A stretch of DNA of 30,133 nucleotides from Myxococcales bacterium (lineage in GTDB: Bacteria; Myxococcota; Myxococcia; Myxococcales; 40CM-4-68-19). The translations under genes and the position numbers were made by a program. The notes below the pieces were generated by a model. It saw only the letters and a program-made list of their open reading frames with translations. It did no database searches and was not told the DNA's origin. Where the stretch lies: NCBI GenBank assembly GCA_036271755.1, contig DATBAA010000959.1:1-30133 (forward strand), in the 5' to 3' direction. Shown piece after piece: positions 7,073-18,454 of the stretch (positions are counted from its first letter, which is position 1; every line of letters begins with the position of its first letter).

Positions 7073-7080
<8 letters not shown>

Positions 7081-7846
7081 GATCGCGCTTGCTGAAGATG
7101 AGGCCGCTCAAGAGCAGGAGCACCGCGGCGTAGCAGAGGCCGTAGGCGGCGGAGGTGGCGACGTAGCTGCCGGGGACCACCAGCCGGTTGGCCGCGCTCG
7201 ACTTGAGGTTGAGCAATTCCAGATCCGGCAGCAGCCGGTAGAAGAGGCTGGCGAAGCTCCGCGCCGAGGTGCTGTGCGACCGCTCGCCGAACGCGCGCAG
7301 ATCGCTCACCAGGTGGCCGATGAGGAAGATGGCCAGCGAGAAGCCGGCGGCGAGCATCGGCGTGGAGAAGCTGCCGAAGAGCATGGCCACGGCCGCCAGC
7401 AGGGTGAGCTCGATGAAGATGAGGAACATCGCCTGCACCACGGTCGCGTCCAGCCGCTCGCTGGCGAGGCGCATCAGGATGCCCAGCAAGAGCAGCATGA
7501 GCAGCGCGTTGGCGGCCAGCACGGCGACGAGGCCCAGGTAGCGTCCAACGACGAAGGTGCCGCGGGTCACCGGCTTGGCCAGCGTGGGAAAGATGGTGCG
7601 CCGCTCGATCTCGCCGGCCACCAGGTTGACGCCCACCACCACCGCGATGAGCGCGCCGCCCAGCTCCGCCGCCGAGAGGCCCTGGTCGAGGATGATTCGC
7701 CGCCACTCGCCGAAGGTGAGCTGCGCCACGAAGAGCGAGCTGCCGAGCAGGAGCGCCGCGAAGATGACGACGTTGTAGAGCAGCTTCGAGCGGATGAGCT
7801 CGCGCACGGTGTTCCAGGCAAGAGCAGCGACCAGGGACAAGTTCAT
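7073..7846 (-). CDS. pilI: ABC-2-type permease, PilI-like
   Basis: 257 aa with about 6 hydrophobic segments, EIERRTIFPTLAKPVTR motif, C-terminal FSKRDLK typical of ABC-2 permeases; SD GAGG upstream; cognate ATPase at 11938. Confidence 0.8.
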
Positions 7847-7853
7847 GAAGACC

Positions 7854-8777
7854 TCATTGCGCGAGCAGACCCGACTGCGTTCCCTGGCGTCCCCGCACGC
7901 GCAGCCGCGGGGCGGCGCTGGAGACGGCCTCGCCGTTCGGCAGCAGCTTGTAGCTTCCGCCGTGCGGCTCTTGCGGCGCCTCGGGCAAATCGCCTGTGGA
8001 GACCAGCGCAGCGATCGACTGCGCCGCGGCGCCGGTGCGCTGCTTGTACTTGTCCGACGCCGCTTCGATCTCGCGCAGGTGCCGCTCCATGCGCAGGTCG
8101 AGCAGGCGCTCGTGCCAGGCAGCGCGGGTGGCGTCCTCGGTGGCCTCGGACTCCATCACGGTGGCGAGCTTCTCGCCCAGGTCGACCGCGCCGGCGTCGG
8201 CGGCGAGCCGGGTGGCGAGAAAGCCGATGTACTTCGGCGCGTCCGGGAGCTTGGCGGCGGCGGTCATGGCTTCCGCGGCGTCGCCCATCTTGCCCAGGTA
8301 GAACGAATCGATGAAGCCGAGCAGGAAGGGCACGCGCCAGTCGCCGGGACAGGCGGCGACACCGCGGCGCAGGAGCTGCTCGGTGGCCATCACATCGGTG
8401 GCCTTGCCGTCGATGGTGTGGCGGGGCATGGCGCTGCCCGCGTAGCGGTAGGCGCCGCAGAACTGCGGGTCGAGCTCGGTGGTGTAGTCGAGCAGGCGGG
8501 CGAGCTGCAGATCTTCGAGCCGGGCTCCGGCGGCGGTCATGGCCGCTTTGCGGCCGCCGTGGATCTGCACCGCCGCGAGGAAGCTCAGGTCGGCGACGAA
8601 CGAGCGCATGCCGAACGAGAAGGGCCGGGCGACTTCCGGCGGAAAGAGCGGGGCCTCGAACGCCGCGGAGGTCACCTCGGGCCGGCTGCCGTCCGCGAGC
8701 TCACGCAGCCCGTAGGCAGAGAGTCCGAAGACGGCGATGGCGGCGATTCGAAGGAGAGGTCCCCGCACGGCATTCAC
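7854..8777 (-). CDS. pilG: PilG-like (myxobacterial PilG / Geobacter XapA-like) membrane-anchored TPR-like protein
   Basis: N-terminal TM anchor, FGMRSFVADLSFLAAVQIHG and LDYTTELDPQFCGAYRYAG motifs, helical repeats (DWRVPFLLGFIDSFYLG); directly downstream of pilA. An alternative GTG start at 8768 is plausible. This is myxobacterial PilG, not the CheY-like PilG of Pseudomonas. Confidence 0.7.
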   Translation of the reverse strand: MNAVRGPLLRIAAIAVFGLSAYGLRELADGSRPEVTSAAFEAPLFPPEVARPFSFGMRSFVADLSFLAAVQIHGGRKAAMTAAGARLEDLQLARLLDYTTELDPQFCGAYRYAGSAMPRHTIDGKATDVMATEQLLRRGVAACPGDWRVPFLLGFIDSFYLGKMGDAAEAMTAAAKLPDAPKYIGFLATRLAADAGAVDLGEKLATVMESEATEDATRAAWHERLLDLRMERHLREIEAASDKYKQRTGAAAQSIAALVSTGDLPEAPQEPHGGSYKLLPNGEAVSSAAPRLRVRGRQGTQSGLLAQ

Positions 8778-8784
8778 TTTATCA
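8776..8784 (-). promoter_or_regulatory. Candidate extended -10 promoter (TGaTAAAGT) for pilG-pilI
   Basis: On the minus strand TGATAAAGT lies just after the pilA terminator and 7 nt before an in-frame GTG (8768); no SD visible. Confidence 0.4.
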
Positions 8785-8791
8785 GGCTCGC

Positions 8792-8831
8792 GAAAGAAGA
8801 GGGCGGCGACCTCGCGTGAAGGTCGCCGCCC
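8792..8831 (-). terminator. Rho-independent terminator of pilA
   Basis: Perfect 12-bp stem GGGCGGCGACCT / AGGTCGCCGCCC (8801-8812 / 8820-8831) with a 7-nt loop, followed on the minus strand by TCTTCTTTC; starts 24 nt after the pilA stop. Confidence 0.85.
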
Positions 8832-8854
8832 GAAAATTCAGATTCGCTGAGAGA

Positions 8855-9427
8855 CTAGCGGTTGACGTCGTTCTGGTCGTTGGACGGCTCGCCCGAGGCG
8901 ATGTTCTGGCCGAGGTGCGAGTCGCAGGTGGCGTCGCTGGTGCGGCCGTCGCTCGAGATGCTCCAGATGTCGGTGGTGGTGTCGGTGTCGATGTTGCCGA
9001 CGGCCTCGCCGACGAAGCCGGTCGAGGTGACGGTCGGGTTGGCAACGCCGCAGGTCAGGCCGGCGACGGTCAGCGGGCTGTAGCCCTTGAAGACGTCGAC
9101 TTCGATGGCCATCGCGTTGGTCGCGGTGCTGGAGCCGGTGCCCGTGCGGGTGTCGAACGCGGTGCCCTGGGTGGTGAAGTAAGCGTAGCGGTTGTTGCGC
9201 TCAGGAGCGAAACCGATTTCGCCGACGTAGGAGGAGTAGCGATCCTTCTCCTGCGAGAACGCCTTCTCGGCGGTGAACATCGCCTTCAAGTTGGCCTTCG
9301 CCTCCGACTGCTTGGAGCGGGCCTGGAACTTGATGAAGTTCGGGATGGCGATGGCGGCGAGGATGCCGATGATGGCGACGACGATCATCAGCTCGATAAG
9401 GGTAAAGCCCTTCATCAGCTTCTTCAT
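8855..9427 (-). CDS. pilA: Major type IVa pilin PilA
   Basis: Class III signal MKKLMKG|[37 protein letters not shown] with Glu at +5; [10 protein letters not shown] and GNIDTD...DIW motifs as in myxobacterial pilins; two Cys; SD AGGAG at 9438-9442; own promoter and terminator. Confidence 0.97.
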
Positions 9428-9482: not shown

Positions 9483-9498
9483 AGCAAGCGCCTTGCCA
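9483..9498 (-). promoter_or_regulatory. Sigma-54 (-24/-12) promoter of pilA
   Basis: Minus strand reads TGGCAAGGCGCTTGCT, matching TGGCAC-N5-TTGC(A/T) with exact GG-N10-GC spacing, about 55 nt upstream of the pilA ATG. Confidence 0.88.
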
Positions 9499-9535: not shown

Positions 9536-11899
9536 CTACACGCGATTGGTGACAGAAAGTGTCAGTCGGCCGACACGGTTTGTCACTATCAGGATCATAA
9601 GCGCCAAAATAGCGACGCCAATGCCGGCGGCGAGGCCTGTAGGGCGGAAACGCAGCTCGACCTCGTGATGCCCAGCCGGCACCACAACGCCCGCAATCGC
9701 GCCGTCCACCGCCAGTGTCGCGGCAGGTTTCCCGTCCACCTGCGTGCTCCAACCCGCGTCGTAGTGCTCGCCCACTTCCAGGATCGCGGCGGAGCGCGCG
9801 TTCACCTCCGCGTGCATGTGCTCGGGCGAGATGCGCGTCAGCGCGACGGTGCCCGGCGAGCCCCGGGCCGGAGCGACCAACGTCGCGGCCTGCGCGTCGC
9901 GGGGGAGCAGGATCGCGGTGCGCGTCGCATCGACGGCCCGCAGGCGCGCGGCGAGCGCGGGCATGTCGGGCGCGGTCTCGGCGTGGTCGAGCAGCCGCGC
10001 GCGCGGACCGGCGGGTAAGGTGAGCAGCCACATCCCGTAGTGGATGCGTTGGAAGCCCAGCTCCGCCGCGTGCGCATCGGTGAGCCCGCGCGGCATCGTC
10101 AAGAAGAAGCGGACGGTGAGCAGCGAGAACGACTCTCGCGGCGCGCCCTCGAGGAGCGGCGCGAAGTCGGGATCGGGGACGCTGAAGTAGTCCGAGACGC
10201 CCTCTATATGGAAGAGCGCATCGAACTGCGGCCGCAGCGGCTCGCGCACGTTCAGGTTGCTGCTGGTCTTGGGGTCCAGGTCCTGCGCGACGATGCCGAG
10301 CTCCGGCCGCACGTAGAGCCGCCAGCGGCCGGCGCTCGGGCCGGCGATCCGTTCGAGCTCGGGAGCCAGCGGCGGCGGATCGCGGAAGTTTTCAATGGGA
10401 ATGGTGATGAGCTGAGTCCCGGCGGAGGCGAGCGACGCCGCGGCGCAGGTGGCGGTGGCCAGGGCCGCGCCCGGGAGCCGCGGCCGCAGCACGAAGGCCA
10501 GCGCCGCCAGGGCGAAGAGGCCGATCAGCTCACCTTCTTGAAGGAGGCCGCCCTGCAGCGAAGAGACGAAGCTGGCCGCGGCTTCGGGTGAGTGGATCTG
10601 CCCCCGGGTAGCGAACCAGTCGCGCAGAGCGCCGGCGCGCTCCGTGGCCAGGAACGAGCCGGTGGCGAAGACGGCGGAAGAGAGCCCGGCCAGCGCCGCC
10701 AAGGCGACCGCGCGGCGGCGCGAGCGGAAGGCCGCGTCCGCGCCCAGCGCGGCCGCCACCGCCAGCATCAAGGAAGCGAAGGCGATCAGCTTCTCGGCAT
10801 AGCGAAAGAGCCCGAAGCCCGGCACCACGCGGTGGAGGATGGGCTGCAGCCCCAGCTTCTCGCCGGTGGCCGCCAGCGCGAACAGGAGCCCTCCATAGAG
10901 GAAGAAGCGGCCGCGCCTTCCGCCCAGGAGCGCGAAGAGCGCGAAGAGGAGCGCGCCCGTGCCCAGGTAGATGCTGGGCGCGAAGGAGACGCCGTCGAAG
11001 TACTCCTCGAACGGAGAGAGGCCGCGGCTCTCGCGCAGCGAGGCGGCGAGCTCGGGCGCGTCGTCGAAGGCGCGCGGAACGAAGAGGCCCGGAAGCCGCT
11101 CCGGCGAGACGGCGAAGTGCTCCAGCTCGTAGCGCGACAAACCCTTGGCCCGGCGCGAGACCTGGCTCGCGGCGGGCAGCGCGACGGGCGCGCTCAGCGC
11201 CAGCGCCAGGCCTCCCCAGGCGGCGGTCAGCAGCAGCGCCCGCGGCAGCTCCTTGCGCCGTGAGAGCGCGCGCGCCACCGCGAAGGCCGCTCCGATGAGT
11301 CCGCCCACCAGCATGGACTGCGGCTCGCCGCCGTAGGTGCAGAGCGCCAGCAGCGCGGACGCCGAAAGGAGCCTGCCGCGCGACGGCTTGTCGAGCAGGG
11401 CGATGAAGCGCTCCAGCGCCAGCGGCACACCCGCCGGACCCACCACGTAGATGATGTTCGACGCCGCTTGTGAGACGAGATAACCGCAGGCGCCGAAGAC
11501 GACGCCGCCGGCGGTGGCTCCCGTGCGGGAAGCGCCCAGCCTGCGCGCCAGCAGGTAGAGCCCCGCGCCGGCCAGCAGCAGCGGCAGCAGGTGATTGAGC
11601 TTGAAGGCCAGGTCGAAGGGGAAGATCAGATAGAGGAGCGACCAGGGGTGCAGCATCCCGGGCGACACCTGCCCCAAGACCGAGACGCCCGACTCGGTCC
11701 AAGGGTCCCAGAACGGAAGCTGCCCTTGCCGCAGCCGTTCGGCCATATACTTCTTGACCGGGTAATAAAGGCGGCCGGTGTCCCGATAGAAGAGCTGCAC
11801 GTCGGGGTCGAGCACCGGCCAGGCGAGCAGGAGAAACGCGCCCAGGGCGATGAGCGCCGGCAGGAAACGTCGCGAAGTTGCCCACTTGCCTTGGCGCAC
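9536..11899 (-). CDS. YfhO-family GT-C-type multi-membrane protein (putative glycosyltransferase)
   Basis: About 787 aa, many TM segments; LFYRDTGRLYYP and PFWDPWTESG in the first loop; FRYAEK; soluble domain ending GEHYDAGWSTQVDGK...AIAGVVVPAGHHEVELRFRP plus a final TM, the typical YfhO C-terminus. The ORF-track start (TTG 11935) is 2 nt from pilH, so GTG 11899 is preferred. Confidence 0.78.
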   Translation of the reverse strand: MRQGKWATSRRFLPALIALGAFLLLAWPVLDPDVQLFYRDTGRLYYPVKKYMAERLRQGQLPFWDPWTESGVSVLGQVSPGMLHPWSLLYLIFPFDLAFKLNHLLPLLLAGAGLYLLARRLGASRTGATAGGVVFGACGYLVSQAASNIIYVVGPAGVPLALERFIALLDKPSRGRLLSASALLALCTYGGEPQSMLVGGLIGAAFAVARALSRRKELPRALLLTAAWGGLALALSAPVALPAASQVSRRAKGLSRYELEHFAVSPERLPGLFVPRAFDDAPELAASLRESRGLSPFEEYFDGVSFAPSIYLGTGALLFALFALLGGRRGRFFLYGGLLFALAATGEKLGLQPILHRVVPGFGLFRYAEKLIAFASLMLAVAAALGADAAFRSRRRAVALAALAGLSSAVFATGSFLATERAGALRDWFATRGQIHSPEAAASFVSSLQGGLLQEGELIGLFALAALAFVLRPRLPGAALATATCAAASLASAGTQLITIPIENFRDPPPLAPELERIAGPSAGRWRLYVRPELGIVAQDLDPKTSSNLNVREPLRPQFDALFHIEGVSDYFSVPDPDFAPLLEGAPRESFSLLTVRFFLTMPRGLTDAHAAELGFQRIHYGMWLLTLPAGPRARLLDHAETAPDMPALAARLRAVDATRTAILLPRDAQAATLVAPARGSPGTVALTRISPEHMHAEVNARSAAILEVGEHYDAGWSTQVDGKPAATLAVDGAIAGVVVPAGHHEVELRFRPTGLAAGIGVAILALMILIVTNRVGRLTLSVTNRV
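9550..9585. promoter_or_regulatory. Tandem palindromic upstream activator sites (probable PilR enhancer)
   Basis: TGACA-GAAAG-TGTCA (9550-9564) and CGACA-CGGTT-TGTCA (9571-9585), 21 bp apart, with a central GTCGGCCGAC palindrome (9565-9574); about 80-115 bp upstream of the inferred pilA start site. Confidence 0.7.
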
Positions 11900-11937
11900 G
11901 CTAGACGTTATCCGCGCCGCGGGACCACGAGGCAACT

Positions 11938-12876
11938 TTGGAAGCGCAGGTTCGAGCAGAGAGGCTGAGCAAGACGTTCCGGGTCGGGTTCCTCGCGCGG
12001 CGGGTACGCGCCGTGGAGGACCTGTCGTTCGAAGTGCGCCGGGGCGAGATCTTCGGTCTGCTCGGCCCGAACGGCGCCGGCAAGACCACCACCTTGAAGA
12101 TGCTGCTCGGCTTCGTGAAGCCCAGCTCGGGCAGCGCCTATATCGGAGACGCCCGCGCCGGCACGCTCGAGGCGCGGCGCAACCTGGGCTACCTGCCGGA
12201 GAACCCGGCGCTCTACGAGTTTTTGCGCGGCGACGAGTACCTGGTCTTCGCCGGCCGCCTCGCCGGGCTCTCGCGCGCGGACGCGCGGGCGCAGGCGAAG
12301 GACCTGCTCGAGAAGGTGGGCCTGGCCGGCCGCGCCGACCGGCCGGTGCGCCGCTTCTCCAAAGGAATGGTGCAGCGGCTCGGCCTCGCGCAGTGCTTGC
12401 TGGGCGATCCGCGGACGGTGGTGCTGGACGAGCCGATGAGCGGCCTCGACCCCATCGGCCGCAAGGACGTGCGCGATCTGATCCTCAAGCTGCGCGAAGA
12501 GGGCCGCACGGTGCTCTTCTCCACCCACATCCTGAGCGACGTGGAGGCCATCTGCGACCGCGTCGGCATCATCGTCGACGGACGGCTCACCGACTGCGGC
12601 GCCCTGGCAGACCTGGTCGAGCCCGGAGCGCGCGCGGTGGAGCTGATCGTCGAGAAGCTGCCCGCCGAGCTGGAGGAAAAGTTCCGCAGCGGCGGCGTGC
12701 AGATGCTGCAGCGCGACCGCGCCATGGTGCTGACCTTCGCCCAGGAGGAGCAGGCCCAGGAAGCGCTGCGGGCGTCCCTGGGCGCGGGCGCGACGGTAGT
12801 CTCGCTGACCCCGCACAGGCGTTCGCTCGAGGAGCTGTTCGTGGCCCGCGCGCGCGGCACGGCCACGACCTCCTGA
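11938..12876 (+). CDS. pilH: ABC transporter ATP-binding protein, PilH-like
   Basis: GPNGAGKTT, signature FSKGMVQR, Walker B VVLDEP, H-loop STH; TTG start with GAGG SD; stop overlaps the pilD start. This is myxobacterial PilH, not the CheY-like PilH. Confidence 0.85.
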   Translation: MEAQVRAERLSKTFRVGFLARRVRAVEDLSFEVRRGEIFGLLGPNGAGKTTTLKMLLGFVKPSSGSAYIGDARAGTLEARRNLGYLPENPALYEFLRGDEYLVFAGRLAGLSRADARAQAKDLLEKVGLAGRADRPVRRFSKGMVQRLGLAQCLLGDPRTVVLDEPMSGLDPIGRKDVRDLILKLREEGRTVLFSTHILSDVEAICDRVGIIVDGRLTDCGALADLVEPGARAVELIVEKLPAELEEKFRSGGVQMLQRDRAMVLTFAQEEQAQEALRASLGAGATVVSLTPHRRSLEELFVARARGTATTS

Positions 12877-13745: not shown

Positions 13746-15076
13746 GGGTCGAGCGCGGCTCGCTCCGGCTGCGGCTCTTCGCCATCGTGCTGGCCGCCGC
13801 GCTGGTGCCCATGGCGCCGCTCGCCATCGCGCTGCTCTTGCAAGTCCGCGACGCGCTCTACTCGCGCCGCCTCGCCGACGCGCGCGACCGCCTGCGCGCC
13901 GCCGCCGAGACGGTGCGCGCGAGCTGTCCAGACGGCTTCGAGGGATGCGCGGTGAAGGCCGCCGCTGGTAGCGGGGCCCGCTTTCTCACCCGCAAGTGCC
14001 CGCAGCCCGTCGTCCGCACGGGCGAGTCGATCTTCTTCTGCGCCGACCTGCCGAGCGGCTCCCTCGAGCTGCGCGAAGAGCTGGCGCCGGTCCGCCGCCA
14101 GCTGGAAGCGCTCGACGTGCGGCTCCTGGCGACGCTCCTCGGCTTCGTGGCGCTCTTGGTCGGCATCGCGGTGTGGCTGCTCGAGCGCGGCTTCGTCCGC
14201 CGGCTCGAGCAGGTGGATCTCGCGCTCGAGGTGGTGGGCGCCGAGCAGGAGGGGCCGGCGCTCTTGCCCGAAGGAGGCGACGCGGTGGGGCGGGTCTCGG
14301 CGGCCGTCAACCGGCTGGCGCAGCGCCTGCGCGATGAGCGCGGCCGGACGCGCGCGCAGATCGTGGCGCTGGAGACCGCCAATGAACAGCTCGGCTCCGC
14401 CCGCGAGGATCTGCAGCGCAGCGAGCGGCTCGCGAGCGTGGGGCGGCTGGCGGCGGGCGTCGCTCACGAGGTGGGCAACCCCGTCTCGGCGCTCATCGGC
14501 TACGCGGCGCTGATGCGCGAGCGGCTGCAGCAGGGCAACGACGTGGCCGAGTATGCCGAGCGGGTAGAGCGCGAGGCCAACCGCATCGATCGCATCTTGC
14601 GCGACCTGCTCGATCTCGCCCGGCCCCGCGAGGTGAGGCCGGTCCCCGTGGATCTGCGGCGCGCGGTCTCGCTGGCCCAGGCGCTCATCGAGCCGCAGCC
14701 GGTGTGGCAGGGCGTCTCGCTGCGGGTCGAGCTGCCCGAAGAGCTTCCCCCGGCGCTGGGCGAGGAGCATTACGTCGTGCAGGTGCTGGTGAACCTGCTC
14801 GCCAACGCCGCGCGGGCCGGCGGCAAGAACGTGAGCGTCACCGGCGGCGCCGCCCGGGACCAGCTCCTGCTCGAGCTGGCAGACGACGGCCCAGGCCTCA
14901 CCGCCGACGCGCTCGAGCACTTGTTCGAGCCGTTCTTCACCACCGCGGCGCCCGGCCAGGGCACGGGCCTCGGGCTCGCGCTCTGCCACGCGACCATGGA
15001 GCGCATCGGCGGCGGCATCTCCGCCCGCAACGGCGGCCGCGGCGCCATCTTCACGCTGCGCTTCAAGACGGCCTAG
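13742..15076 (+). CDS. pilS2: Sensor histidine kinase, PilS2-like
   Basis: ATG at 13742 (ATGA overlap with the pilD stop). Two TM segments, HAMP-like linker, GVAHEVGNPVSAL H-box, FEPFFTT...GQGTGLGL; same position after pilD as M. xanthus pilS2 (from memory). Confidence 0.8.
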   Translation: MRVERGSLRLRLFAIVLAAALVPMAPLAIALLLQVRDALYSRRLADARDRLRAAAETVRASCPDGFEGCAVKAAAGSGARFLTRKCPQPVVRTGESIFFCADLPSGSLELREELAPVRRQLEALDVRLLATLLGFVALLVGIAVWLLERGFVRRLEQVDLALEVVGAEQEGPALLPEGGDAVGRVSAAVNRLAQRLRDERGRTRAQIVALETANEQLGSAREDLQRSERLASVGRLAAGVAHEVGNPVSALIGYAALMRERLQQGNDVAEYAERVEREANRIDRILRDLLDLARPREVRPVPVDLRRAVSLAQALIEPQPVWQGVSLRVELPEELPPALGEEHYVVQVLVNLLANAARAGGKNVSVTGGAARDQLLLELADDGPGLTADALEHLFEPFFTTAAPGQGTGLGLALCHATMERIGGGISARNGGRGAIFTLRFKTA

Positions 15077-16602
15077 CGAATCAGTTTGACGATCCGCACC
15101 CGCCACCACGGCTGGATCGGGTCGGTGGAGAAGACCCAGGGCAGAAGGCCGGCGTGGCTGGACCAGAGGCCGGCGCCGCTCGACATGGTGCGGATGGGAA
15201 ACGGATCGCCGATGGCTCCCTCCGCGACCGCCACCGCATCGCCGAGCGGAATGCCCAGCGAGCCCGGGTAGCTCAGATCGAGCACCTCGTCGCCCGCTTC
15301 GAGCCCCGCGCCGGCAGGCGAGCCGGGCTTGAGCTCGCCCCAGAGGAAGACAGCGCCCGCCCGCGGCGCGTACTCCTGCGCGCCCCAGGGCGTGCCGGCG
15401 ACGTAGACCCGCGGCGTCTGTGCCTTGGCGGCGGCGACCTGCGACAAGGTCAGGTCGCGCAGGGCGTTGGCGTAGCGCTCGTCGTCGATGCTGGCGGCGA
15501 CGCTGATGGCCAGGGTCACCGCGGCGCACGCCCAGACCCGCGCGGGCTTCGCGTCGACGCCGCGGAGGATGAGCAGGAAGATGGGCGGCAGCGCCAGCGC
15601 GACGTACTTGGCGGCGGCCTGGTTGTAGACGAGCGGCACCGCCAGCGCCCCGAAGAACCAGAGCCAGAGGAAGATCGAGTCCAGATCGAAGGCCGGCAGC
15701 CGCAGCCGCGCCAGCGCGAAGAGCACCGTGCCGAAACCCACCAGCAAGGTTGGGAAGACGCCCAGCGGCGCCAGCGCGAAGAGCACGAGCGCCACCACCT
15801 CCAAGAGCGGCCGCGAGGGCTTGAAGATCGCCGCTGCCAGCGCCGCCGCGCTGAAGAGCGCCAGCGCCGCCGAGGTGGAGAGCAGGCGCCAGACGAAGAG
15901 CACTCCGCCGGAGCCGTGCAGCTGCGCGGTGGTCACGGTCTGCGCGCTGCCGAGGGTCTGGACGCCGCCGGCTTGCGGCACGCGGCTGGCCAGCGTCCAG
16001 AGCACGAACGCGGCGGCGAGCGCCGCCAGGGGGAGCAGCGCCCGCCACTTGCGCCGCGAGAGCTGCACGCAGCCCGCGAGCAGCAGGACGGGGAGGGCGC
16101 TGATGCGCAAAGTCCAGCCAAACGCGAAGAGCGCGCTGGCCGCGGCGATCTTCCACCAGCGCGGCTCCTCGGCGTCGCTCCAGAGCAGCGCCACGGCGCC
16201 CGCGACCGCCGCCACCATCGGCACGTCGGGCATCAAGGTGGTCGCGGGCAGGAGCACGCAGCCGCTGCAGACGAACAAGAGCGCGGCGGCCCACGGATCG
16301 CGCACGCCGAACTGCCGCGCGACCGCACGCATCGCGAAGACAGCCAGGAGCGCGAAGGGCAGCAGCAAGAGGTGCAGCGCCAGCTCCGATTCGCCGAACA
16401 CCGACATCATGCCGCCCAGCAGCCAGGCCGCGCCGGGCGGATTGGACGCGCTGCCCCCTCCATAAGGATGCAGCGGGTTCTGCTGCGCGGCGCGCGCCAG
16501 CCCCAGGAAGGTAGCGTCGTCGATGTGGAAGGCCTTCCCCGCCTGCGGCAGGAGAACGGCCGCGGCGGCGAGGTAGGCCGCCCAGTCGCGAAGCTTGCGC
16601 AT
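15073..16602 (-). CDS. ArnT/PMT-like (GT-C) membrane glycosyltransferase
   Basis: Probable start MRKLRDW (ATG 16602), 509 aa. First-loop acidic pair FHIDDATF, SNPPGAAWLLG, ESELALHLL, TLMPDVP, AAKYVALALPP; about 11-13 TM segments plus a small C-terminal soluble domain. Confidence 0.72.
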   Translation of the reverse strand: MRKLRDWAAYLAAAAVLLPQAGKAFHIDDATFLGLARAAQQNPLHPYGGGSASNPPGAAWLLGGMMSVFGESELALHLLLLPFALLAVFAMRAVARQFGVRDPWAAALLFVCSGCVLLPATTLMPDVPMVAAVAGAVALLWSDAEEPRWWKIAAASALFAFGWTLRISALPVLLLAGCVQLSRRKWRALLPLAALAAAFVLWTLASRVPQAGGVQTLGSAQTVTTAQLHGSGGVLFVWRLLSTSAALALFSAAALAAAIFKPSRPLLEVVALVLFALAPLGVFPTLLVGFGTVLFALARLRLPAFDLDSIFLWLWFFGALAVPLVYNQAAAKYVALALPPIFLLILRGVDAKPARVWACAAVTLAISVAASIDDERYANALRDLTLSQVAAAKAQTPRVYVAGTPWGAQEYAPRAGAVFLWGELKPGSPAGAGLEAGDEVLDLSYPGSLGIPLGDAVAVAEGAIGDPFPIRTMSSGAGLWSSHAGLLPWVFSTDPIQPWWRVRIVKLIR

Positions 16603-16636
16603 CCGCGGCGGATAGCACGGTGTAGAGTGAGCCGCC

Positions 16637-18043
<1,407 letters not shown>

Positions 18044-18238: not shown

Positions 18239-18454
18239 GTGAACCGAGTGCAGAAGTTTCGTGAAGCCGCGCTGATGGCCAAGGCAGAGCTGGCCCGCAA
18301 GGCCGGCGTCTCTGAATCCACCATCGATCGGGTGGAGTCGGGTCACGACTGCCGGATGGAGACCAAGCGCAAGATCCTCTTCGCGCTCGGCCTCACCTTG
18401 CAGGAGAGTCAGAAGCTGTTTCCGCGCAACGCAAGCCGTGCGCGGGTGGGATGA
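18239..18454 (+). CDS. Small XRE/Cro-family helix-turn-helix protein
   Basis: 71 aa, KAELARKAGVSESTIDRVESG HTH; GTG start with GGAGG SD. Confidence 0.85.
   Translation: MNRVQKFREAALMAKAELARKAGVSESTIDRVESGHDCRMETKRKILFALGLTLQESQKLFPRNASRARVG

Follow-up and report, generated by a model that had tools for sequence, protein, structure and literature searches.

The gene for the major type IV pilin of an uncultured soil bacterium of the Myxococcales (GTDB group 40CM-4-68-19), pilA, is directly preceded on the same strand by a gene for a GT-C glycosyltransferase of the YfhO family, and this placement is conserved among the relatives that carry the gene. The window analysed here is a whole contig of 30.1 kb (30,133 nt; DATBAA010000959.1 of assembly GCA_036271755.1) from a 5.5 Mb metagenome-assembled genome that is 91% complete (the own genome, G000); open reading frame calls and family profile searches find a complete type IVa pilus cluster in it. 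The most likely function of the enzyme is O-glycosylation of the pilin from a polyprenyl-phosphate sugar, a reading to which we give a probability of roughly 0.55. Protein glycosylation by YfhO-type enzymes and pilin glycosylation by a GT-C enzyme are both already known. The YfhO-type enzyme encoded beside pilA is a good candidate, at the stage of prediction, for a third class of pilus-glycosylating enzymes.

The YfhO-family gene occupies positions 9536 to 11899 on the minus strand. Its frame opens with a GTG and encodes 787 amino acids, as does the public gene call (P0004), while an in-frame TTG at 11935 would give 799; the GC content at third codon positions is 0.88, which is host-like. The original prediction had described a polytopic protein of about 787 residues with an Arg-Asp motif in its first loop and a YfhO-type C-terminus, and each of these traits was recovered. 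The motif, R39-D40 within LFYRDTG, lies directly after the first transmembrane helix (residues 2-30 of the model described below). It is invariant in 30 close homologues (alignment A2) and conserved in at least 90% of 100 homologues reaching down to 23% identity (alignment A1); besides it, some 60 positions are invariant across the 30 close homologues. A conserved acidic residue in the first loop is characteristic of GT-C enzymes, and D40 supplies it here. The positively charged N-terminus and the topology of the family would place this loop on the periplasmic side. The Pfam profile YfhO (PF09586) is matched with 46.7 bits (cut-off 28.5), the alignment covering residues 700-773 only, and the same label is precomputed on nearly all homologues. 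About 90 full-length homologues at E <1e-100, mostly from soil metagenomes and Myxococcales metagenome-assembled genomes, form a discrete subfamily. The equivalog models for streptococcal PgfM1 and PgfM2 (NF047589 and NF047590) reach 30 bits, in the C-terminal part only, against cut-offs of 1400 and 1500, and the protein was therefore rejected as their equivalog. Pfam searches of the protein gave no Wzy_C (O-antigen ligase) match at E 0.01 and no TPR match.

An AlphaFold2 model built from 100 homologues has a mean predicted local confidence (pLDDT) of 95.2 and a predicted template-modelling score (pTM) of 0.94. Foldseek matched it to GT-C enzymes only among solved structures, with probability 1.0, and all 48 top matches of VIA-align were likewise GT-C enzymes: STT3 came first (Z 19.3, 438 aligned residues, root-mean-square deviation 4.2), ahead of AftD (Z 17.6, 573 aligned, residues 10-774), ArnT (16.3), Pmt4 (15.6), PglB (15.2) and Pmt (14-15). 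The best reviewed match is the predicted structure of Bacillus subtilis YfhO (O31582; Foldseek E 2.8e-16, template-modelling scores 0.65/0.60, 12% identity), which aligns over its full length (residues 10-775 against 4-854). The model also has the architecture of YfhO: a transmembrane bundle, a large extracytoplasmic domain (about 497-755, beta-rich, with strands in 683-751) and a last transmembrane helix (756-784). A sequence-profile search of solved structures returned nothing relevant, one designed protein appearing at E 0.014; thus no solved structure of the YfhO family can be found by sequence. With GT-C enzymes alone among the structural matches and YfhO matched from end to end, the modelled protein is a GT-C glycosyltransferase of the YfhO family. 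The GT-C fold on which the original prediction depended is borne out, ArnT and PglB being among the matches.

Whether the linkage to pilA is conserved or sporadic was asked of 40 relatives, 24 from the same family and 16 from other families of the order, with a cut-off of E 1e-50. A homologue is present in 15 of the 24 same-family relatives and absent, at this cut-off, from the 16 others. With the own genome this makes 16 gene-bearing family genomes, of which 14 (the own genome and 13 relatives) could be assessed; in every one of these the best copy immediately precedes pilA and is read in the same direction. In the remaining 2 the contig ends at the gene. Gene maps show a fixed position, between pilA and a divergent pilH-like gene, and the same pilA-adjacent placement was found in the genome G202. 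On a 187 kb contig of P0005 (L100), where the enzyme is 83% identical, the gene order is identical throughout, the second GT-C gene of the cluster (PMT_2) included. On an 888 kb contig of P0032 (L111), at 44% identity, the gene again stands immediately upstream of pilA. The 16 loci found in a search for loci related to alignment A2 largely overlap the genomes of the survey and are not independent of it. The linkage is thus conserved and not sporadic. At least five family genomes (G007, G010, G014, G018 and G019) have the same cluster and lack the YfhO-family gene; in these, pilA is directly divergent from pilH, about 260 nt away. The trait under study is therefore that of a GT-C gene which, as a variable accessory, stands directly beside the major pilin gene, here upstream of it.

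The occupants of the pilA-pilH slot are widely divergent, with 40-61% identity to the copy in the window. The association also extends beyond this slot. At a second locus (L024, L086) a paralogue adjoins three pilin genes and a secretin-like gene. Three remote homologues were sampled. P0096 and P0101 (31-32% identity) belong to pilus clusters of other lineages; the third, P0105, does not lie in such a cluster. The order in P0096 is pilS, pilR, YfhO, a 615-aa protein, a pilin and a Wzy_C protein; in P0101 it is an M20 peptidase, a methyltransferase, YfhO, pilD, a kinase and a pilin. The own genome, of 5.5 Mb, has about six full-length paralogues; that one of them should adjoin pilA, and that this should recur in every assessable gene-bearing relative, is far more than chance would give. 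Three variations on these loci may be recorded. A tandem pair of YfhO-like genes stands upstream of pilA in G004 (L069:10305-15013) and on the P0032 contig (L111:1905-6373). Between the YfhO-family gene and an intact pilA, G012 has a further pilA copy, apparently frameshifted, with matches in two different frames (L072:10739-11246). The P0096 contig (L109) brings two candidate pilin-glycosylating types, YfhO and Wzy_C (TfpO/PglL-like), together in one cluster.

The pilus cluster of the window begins with pilB, pilT, pilC, pilS and pilR on the plus strand, followed on the minus strand by the gene for a PilI-like ABC-2 permease, that for a 307-aa protein, pilA and the YfhO-family gene. The plus strand then carries the genes for a PilH-like ABC ATPase, pilD and the kinase pilS2; the PMT_2 GT-C gene follows on the minus strand, then pilR2 and pilMNOPQ on the plus strand, and finally efp, accB, accC and a TPR protein gene. 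The features needed below are these:

7073..7846, minus strand: PilI-like ABC-2 type permease (Pfam).
7854..8777, minus strand: 307-aa protein in the position of PilG; no family match, kept after pilA in all relatives.
8801..8831, minus strand: strong hairpin terminator 3' of pilA (13 pairs, 10 of them G-C).
8855..9427, minus strand: pilA, major type IV pilin of 190 aa, the presumed acceptor (Pilin_PilA and N_methyl profiles).
9484..9498, minus strand: sigma-54 type -24/-12 element of pilA (TGGCA-N6-TTGC, single match in the window).
9550..9585, minus strand: two TGACA-N5-TGTC palindromes, candidate PilR enhancer of pilA, within the last codons of the YfhO-family gene.
9536..11899, minus strand: YfhO-family GT-C glycosyltransferase gene, 787 aa (translation, Pfam, AlphaFold2 model).
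11938..12876, plus strand: PilH-like ABC transporter ATPase, divergent from the YfhO-family gene, about 40 nt apart.
15073..16695, minus strand: second GT-C gene (PMT_2), a possible partner, between pilS2 and pilR2.

The pilA, pilG-like and pilI-like genes (7073-9427) thus have the opposite orientation to the rest of the cluster, and the gene for the pilH-like ATPase (11938-12876) is separated from them on the other side, an arrangement that is kept across the family; in Myxococcus xanthus, pilA, G, H and I are co-linear with pilR. A gene for a 71-aa XRE-type helix-turn-helix protein precedes pilM (18239-18454) and is also found on the related contig L100 (HTH_31/HTH_3, weak). The own genome holds an orphan second pilA, 87% identical to that of the cluster, on contig C195 (L078:4402-4965, minus strand); it lies downstream of a DUF2845 gene, and the genes around it have no pilus or glycosylation functions.

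The pilA product matches the profiles Pilin_PilA (82.7 bits) and N_methyl (35 bits); the myxobacterial PilA model gives 171 bits, below its cut-off of 400. The stop codon of the YfhO-family gene is at 9538-9536, and the element TGGCAAGGCGCTTGC at 9498-9484 on the minus strand lies 37 nt beyond it, in agreement with the earlier estimate that the gene ends about 40 bp before the sigma-54 promoter of pilA. TGGCAAGGCGCTTGC is the sole TGGCA-N6-TTGC match in the 30 kb window and lies 57 nt before the pilA ATG at 9427. The TGACA-N5-TGTC palindromes have no other match in the window, where 0.08 would be expected by chance, and are likely, as candidates by motif, to be the PilR site. A similar palindrome is found about 120-150 nt upstream of pilA, together with -24/-12-like elements, in relatives with and without the YfhO-family gene. 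Since the palindromes are also present in relatives lacking the gene, they represent an ancestral element upstream of pilA, into which the frame of the inserted gene runs. Thus, the regulatory unit of pilA is intact downstream of the YfhO-family gene, whose 3' end reaches into it.

No terminator had been seen between the two genes, and no convincing one was found in this interval: the number of terminator-like sites stays within the range of shuffled sequences, and the predicted folding of the region is no more stable than that of shuffled sequence (z -0.65). A hairpin at 9576-9559 was considered as a terminator and rejected; it lies inside the coding tail, coincides with the palindromic enhancer-like repeat and is also found upstream of pilA in the genomes without the gene. 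The common strand and the upstream position are as originally stated. Shared transcription does not follow from them, because pilA has an enhancer and a promoter of its own, so that the same orientation does not establish co-transcription or co-expression with the YfhO-family gene.

The pilus cluster has a second variable slot, between pilS2 and pilR2. In the window it is filled by the second GT-C gene, which matches Pfam PMT_2 with 32.4 bits (cut-off 26.1). Among the 41 genomes compared this gene is present only in G000 and G017, and additionally on the P0005 contig. The slot was examined in the window (15073-16695, minus strand) and at L072:2257-5042, L103:2064-10485 and L070:990-2630, among others, and its contents are as follows:

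G000 (the window), G017 and the P0005 contig: PMT_2 GT-C gene.
G012, G009 and G011: 515-aa polytopic protein and GT2 genes.
G009 only: methyltransferases and a flavin amine oxidase in addition.
G015: beginning of the 515-aa gene, which is cut off where the contig ends.
G021: LIC_10190-family membrane protein.
G007 (lacking the YfhO-family gene): GT2-methyltransferase fusion and a polytopic protein.
G010 and G018 (both lacking the YfhO-family gene): empty.

In the Atlas, the named clusters closest to the 515-aa protein are PMT_2, STT3 and ArnT (score 0.99, to be taken as a lead only). The GT2 of G012 has C-terminal transmembrane helices, and its best matches are AglJ, a dolichyl-phosphate hexose transferase, a polyprenyl-phospho-GalNAc synthase and ArnC; the GT2 genes of G009 and G011 show no more than 31-32% identity to it. 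A GT2 of polyprenyl-phosphate type in the G012 pilus cluster is an indirect pointer to a lipid-sugar donor. The PMT_2-like, GT2 and methyltransferase genes found in the slot mean that, as far as gene families tell, the pilus cluster of this family is repeatedly equipped with parts of a periplasmic lipid-sugar glycosylation pathway. That further glycosylation genes accompany the YfhO-family gene was thus correct. The PMT_2 gene, which had been counted as part of one system with it, is present in the window and confined to the closest relatives (G017 and the P0005 contig), the others holding different genes in its place.

A mechanism can be proposed on this basis. The YfhO-family gene would be an optional accessory of the type IV pilus cluster and its product an active GT-C glycosyltransferase. 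A cytoplasmic GT2 would load a single sugar onto polyprenyl phosphate, the donor type to be expected from the family, and the lipid-linked sugar would be flipped across the inner membrane. At the periplasmic face the enzyme, acting through Arg39-Asp40 of its first loop, would transfer the sugar to serine or threonine residues of membrane-anchored PilA before the fibre is assembled; the PMT_2-like GT-C enzyme of the same cluster may add or extend sugars. Gene placement and analogy point to the pilin as the acceptor. By the same kind of analogy, with Pseudomonas, the modification may serve to vary the pilus surface, for instance against pilus-specific phages.

Type IV pilin glycosylation has been described for two enzyme types, the Wzy_C-type enzymes TfpO and PglL and the GT-C enzyme TfpW. 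TfpW, encoded beside pilA, glycosylates the Pseudomonas pilin (bioRxiv 10.1101/2020.04.19.049825), and another preprint reports that pilin glycosylation in Pseudomonas protects against pilus-specific phages (bioRxiv 10.1101/150227). TfpW, from P. aeruginosa group IV, is a D-arabinofuranosyltransferase that modifies several pilin serines and threonines in the periplasm from a lipid-linked donor. Like it, the enzyme of the window is a GT-C membrane enzyme whose gene is a strain-variable accessory beside pilA. TfpW differs in having 646 aa, 11 transmembrane segments, a C-terminal periplasmic TPR domain and a DDX motif, and in being encoded downstream of pilA, whereas the window enzyme, at 787 aa, combines an Arg-Asp motif with a beta-rich periplasmic domain that precedes the last transmembrane helix, and is encoded upstream of pilA; the description of TfpW sets the two apart, in different GT-C families. 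TfpO/PilO and PglL also glycosylate type IV pilins in the periplasm, and tfpO too lies beside pilA, but these enzymes have the Wzy_C fold and family and transfer preassembled oligosaccharides from undecaprenyl pyrophosphate.

The other set of known systems shares the family. Since 2025 the YfhO-family enzymes PgtC2 and PgfM1 have been known as O-glycosyltransferases of membrane and surface proteins in streptococci, where they modify Ser/Thr-rich regions; their undecaprenyl-phosphate sugar donors come from GtrB or PgfS (PMC12041528). The systems PgtC2/GtrB and PgfM1/PgfM2/PgfS share the Pfam family and the GT-C fold with the window enzyme, and they act outside the cytoplasm, transferring single sugars to serine or threonine of membrane-associated or surface proteins. 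The Pgf genes are encoded beside their adhesin substrates, and the Pgf combination of two GT-C enzymes and one GT2 resembles the sets of YfhO, PMT_2-like and GT2 genes in the pilus clusters of the relatives. Unlike these systems, the window has no GT2 partner and its pilin lacks the disordered Ser/Thr tracts that serve as acceptors in the streptococci; the latter are monoderm, and the sequence similarity to their enzymes is confined to the last 65-75 residues or so. B. subtilis CsbB-GtcA-YfhO provides the best full-length structural match and has the same large extracytoplasmic domain before the last transmembrane helix (PMC5836110). Together with Listeria Lmo1079, it belongs to the three-component systems of teichoic acid glycosylation. 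Diderm myxobacteria are not known to have teichoic acid. The original prediction had argued that, lipoteichoic acid not being known there, the acceptor would be a new one; this argument overlooks the YfhO-family protein O-glycosyltransferases PgtC2 and PgfM1, which are already proven (PMC12041528).

In the literature outside subscription journals, no paper was found that links a YfhO-family enzyme to a pilin, that extends pilin glycosylation by GT-C enzymes beyond TfpW, or that deals with the glycosylation of myxobacterial pilins, and a comparative study of myxobacterial pilus clusters does not mention glycosyltransferases (PMC6060248). The broader proposal has about even odds in our estimate. 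It holds that YfhO-type GT-C enzymes would form a third, undescribed class of type IV pilin glycosyltransferases, and that the pilA-pilH and pilS2-pilR2 slots would be hot spots swapping GT-C enzymes, lipid-sugar synthases and methyltransferases to give each species its own pilus glycoforms, with phages or kin recognition as the probable selective pressure.

Several observations weigh against the pilin as acceptor, and a number of them favour another explanation, namely that the enzyme is a periplasmic glycosyltransferase acting on other envelope proteins with Ser/Thr-rich stretches, in the way of streptococcal PgtC2, or on an envelope glycan, for example lipopolysaccharide or exopolysaccharide. 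Its place next to pilA would then be due solely to the tendency of variable genes to accumulate in the pilA-pilH gap. The own genome encodes five more full-length paralogues in unrelated contexts, away from pilus genes; their neighbours are peptidases, a TPR protein, an exchanger and an FKBP, among which no glycan or pilus theme is apparent. Two of these unlinked paralogues, at 61% and 55% identity, are more closely related to the linked copy than any other gene of the genome, and the enzyme tree led us to reject the idea that the pilA-linked copies form one orthologous clade. In the class as a whole YfhO-like genes are frequent, occurring in 79 of 201 genomes at E 1e-20, and in five large-genome relatives the best YfhO hit has no pilin gene within 1.5 kb. 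The pilA gene keeps its own enhancer and sigma-54 promoter whether the YfhO-family gene is present or absent. The window contains no donor synthase or flippase gene within its 30 kb; the GT2 partner of CsbB/GtrB/PgfS type, absent here, is found in the pilus cluster of G012, with weaker relatives in G009 and G011, and the GT2 proteins encoded in the own genome are no more than distantly related to the G012 enzyme, at 28-34% identity. The sole GtrA domain of the own genome is fused to a CDP-alcohol phosphatidyltransferase. (The reading frame of this fusion, about 770 aa on contig C460 at L083:2-2311, minus strand, adjoins a phosphodiester glycosidase gene.) Finally, all genomes concerned are those of uncultured organisms.

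No feature of the pilins follows the presence of the gene either, which again fits an acceptor other than the pilin. Their architecture and Ser/Thr content are alike in both groups of genomes (a Ser/Thr fraction of 0.17-0.27 in those lacking the gene vs 0.14-0.28 in those bearing it), and neither this fraction, nor the cysteines, nor the alignment yielded a discriminating feature. The Ser/Thr richness of the pilin, which had been taken as a pointer to glycosylation, is therefore not a discriminating one. Since a Ser/Thr-rich stretch at about residues 92-104 is common to all pilins compared, in both groups, no acceptor signature can be named. Pilins are slightly longer in the genomes without the gene (about 201-215 vs 189-200 aa), which we do not take as evidence. 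Pilin clades follow the presence of the gene at the level of genomes; this was not counted as co-evolution, because the species are related, support is weak and shared ancestry could explain it. Set against all this, the placement recurs with enzymes that are only 40-60% identical to one another, beside another group of pilin genes and in distant lineages, and hitch-hiking alone would not preserve it; moreover, glycosylation genes also fill the cluster's second variable slot. An acceptor other than the pilin, the main rival reading, is therefore judged somewhat unlikely. The candidate pilin glycosylation system originally proposed stands as far as the GT-C/YfhO fold, the conserved linkage to pilA and the companion glycosylation genes are concerned, and has lost its arguments from lipoteichoic acid and from Ser/Thr content.

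Two other explanations turn on the neighbouring genes and on the state of the protein. The enzyme might partner the PilG/H/I exporter of ABC-2 type and modify a lipid-linked glycan or glycolipid moved by this transporter instead of the pilin. The gene does lie between pilA-pilG-pilI and the divergent pilH, ABC-2 exporters are the established type for the export of teichoic acids and O-antigens, and YfhO of Bacillus modifies a polymer, lipoteichoic acid (PMC5836110). This is nevertheless improbable: the pilG/H/I-like genes are intact in the family genomes without the YfhO-family gene, so the transporter does not depend on the enzyme, and no such transporter genes are listed near the remote homologues in the pilus clusters of P0096 and P0101. 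It is more improbable still that the protein is catalytically dead and assists the pilin as a membrane accessory or chaperone, in the manner of Pseudomonas TfpX/Y/Z. Non-enzymatic pilin accessory genes are indeed known beside pilA; however, Arg-Asp and the other positions are invariant across 30 homologues, and the model preserves, with high confidence, the GT-C fold in its entirety as well as the C-terminal domain, the pattern expected of an active enzyme. O-glycosylation of the pilin thus remains the preferred reading.

Social motility in myxobacteria is powered by type IV pili, which also bind exopolysaccharide. If the proposal is true, a pilus sugar coat that varies would matter for motility, for recognition between cells and for phage or predator-prey interactions in soil, and the presence and absence of the gene within one genus offer natural controls. 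If the pilin is the acceptor, the acceptor range of the YfhO family would widen from the wall polymers and adhesins of Gram-positive bacteria to a surface filament of diderms.

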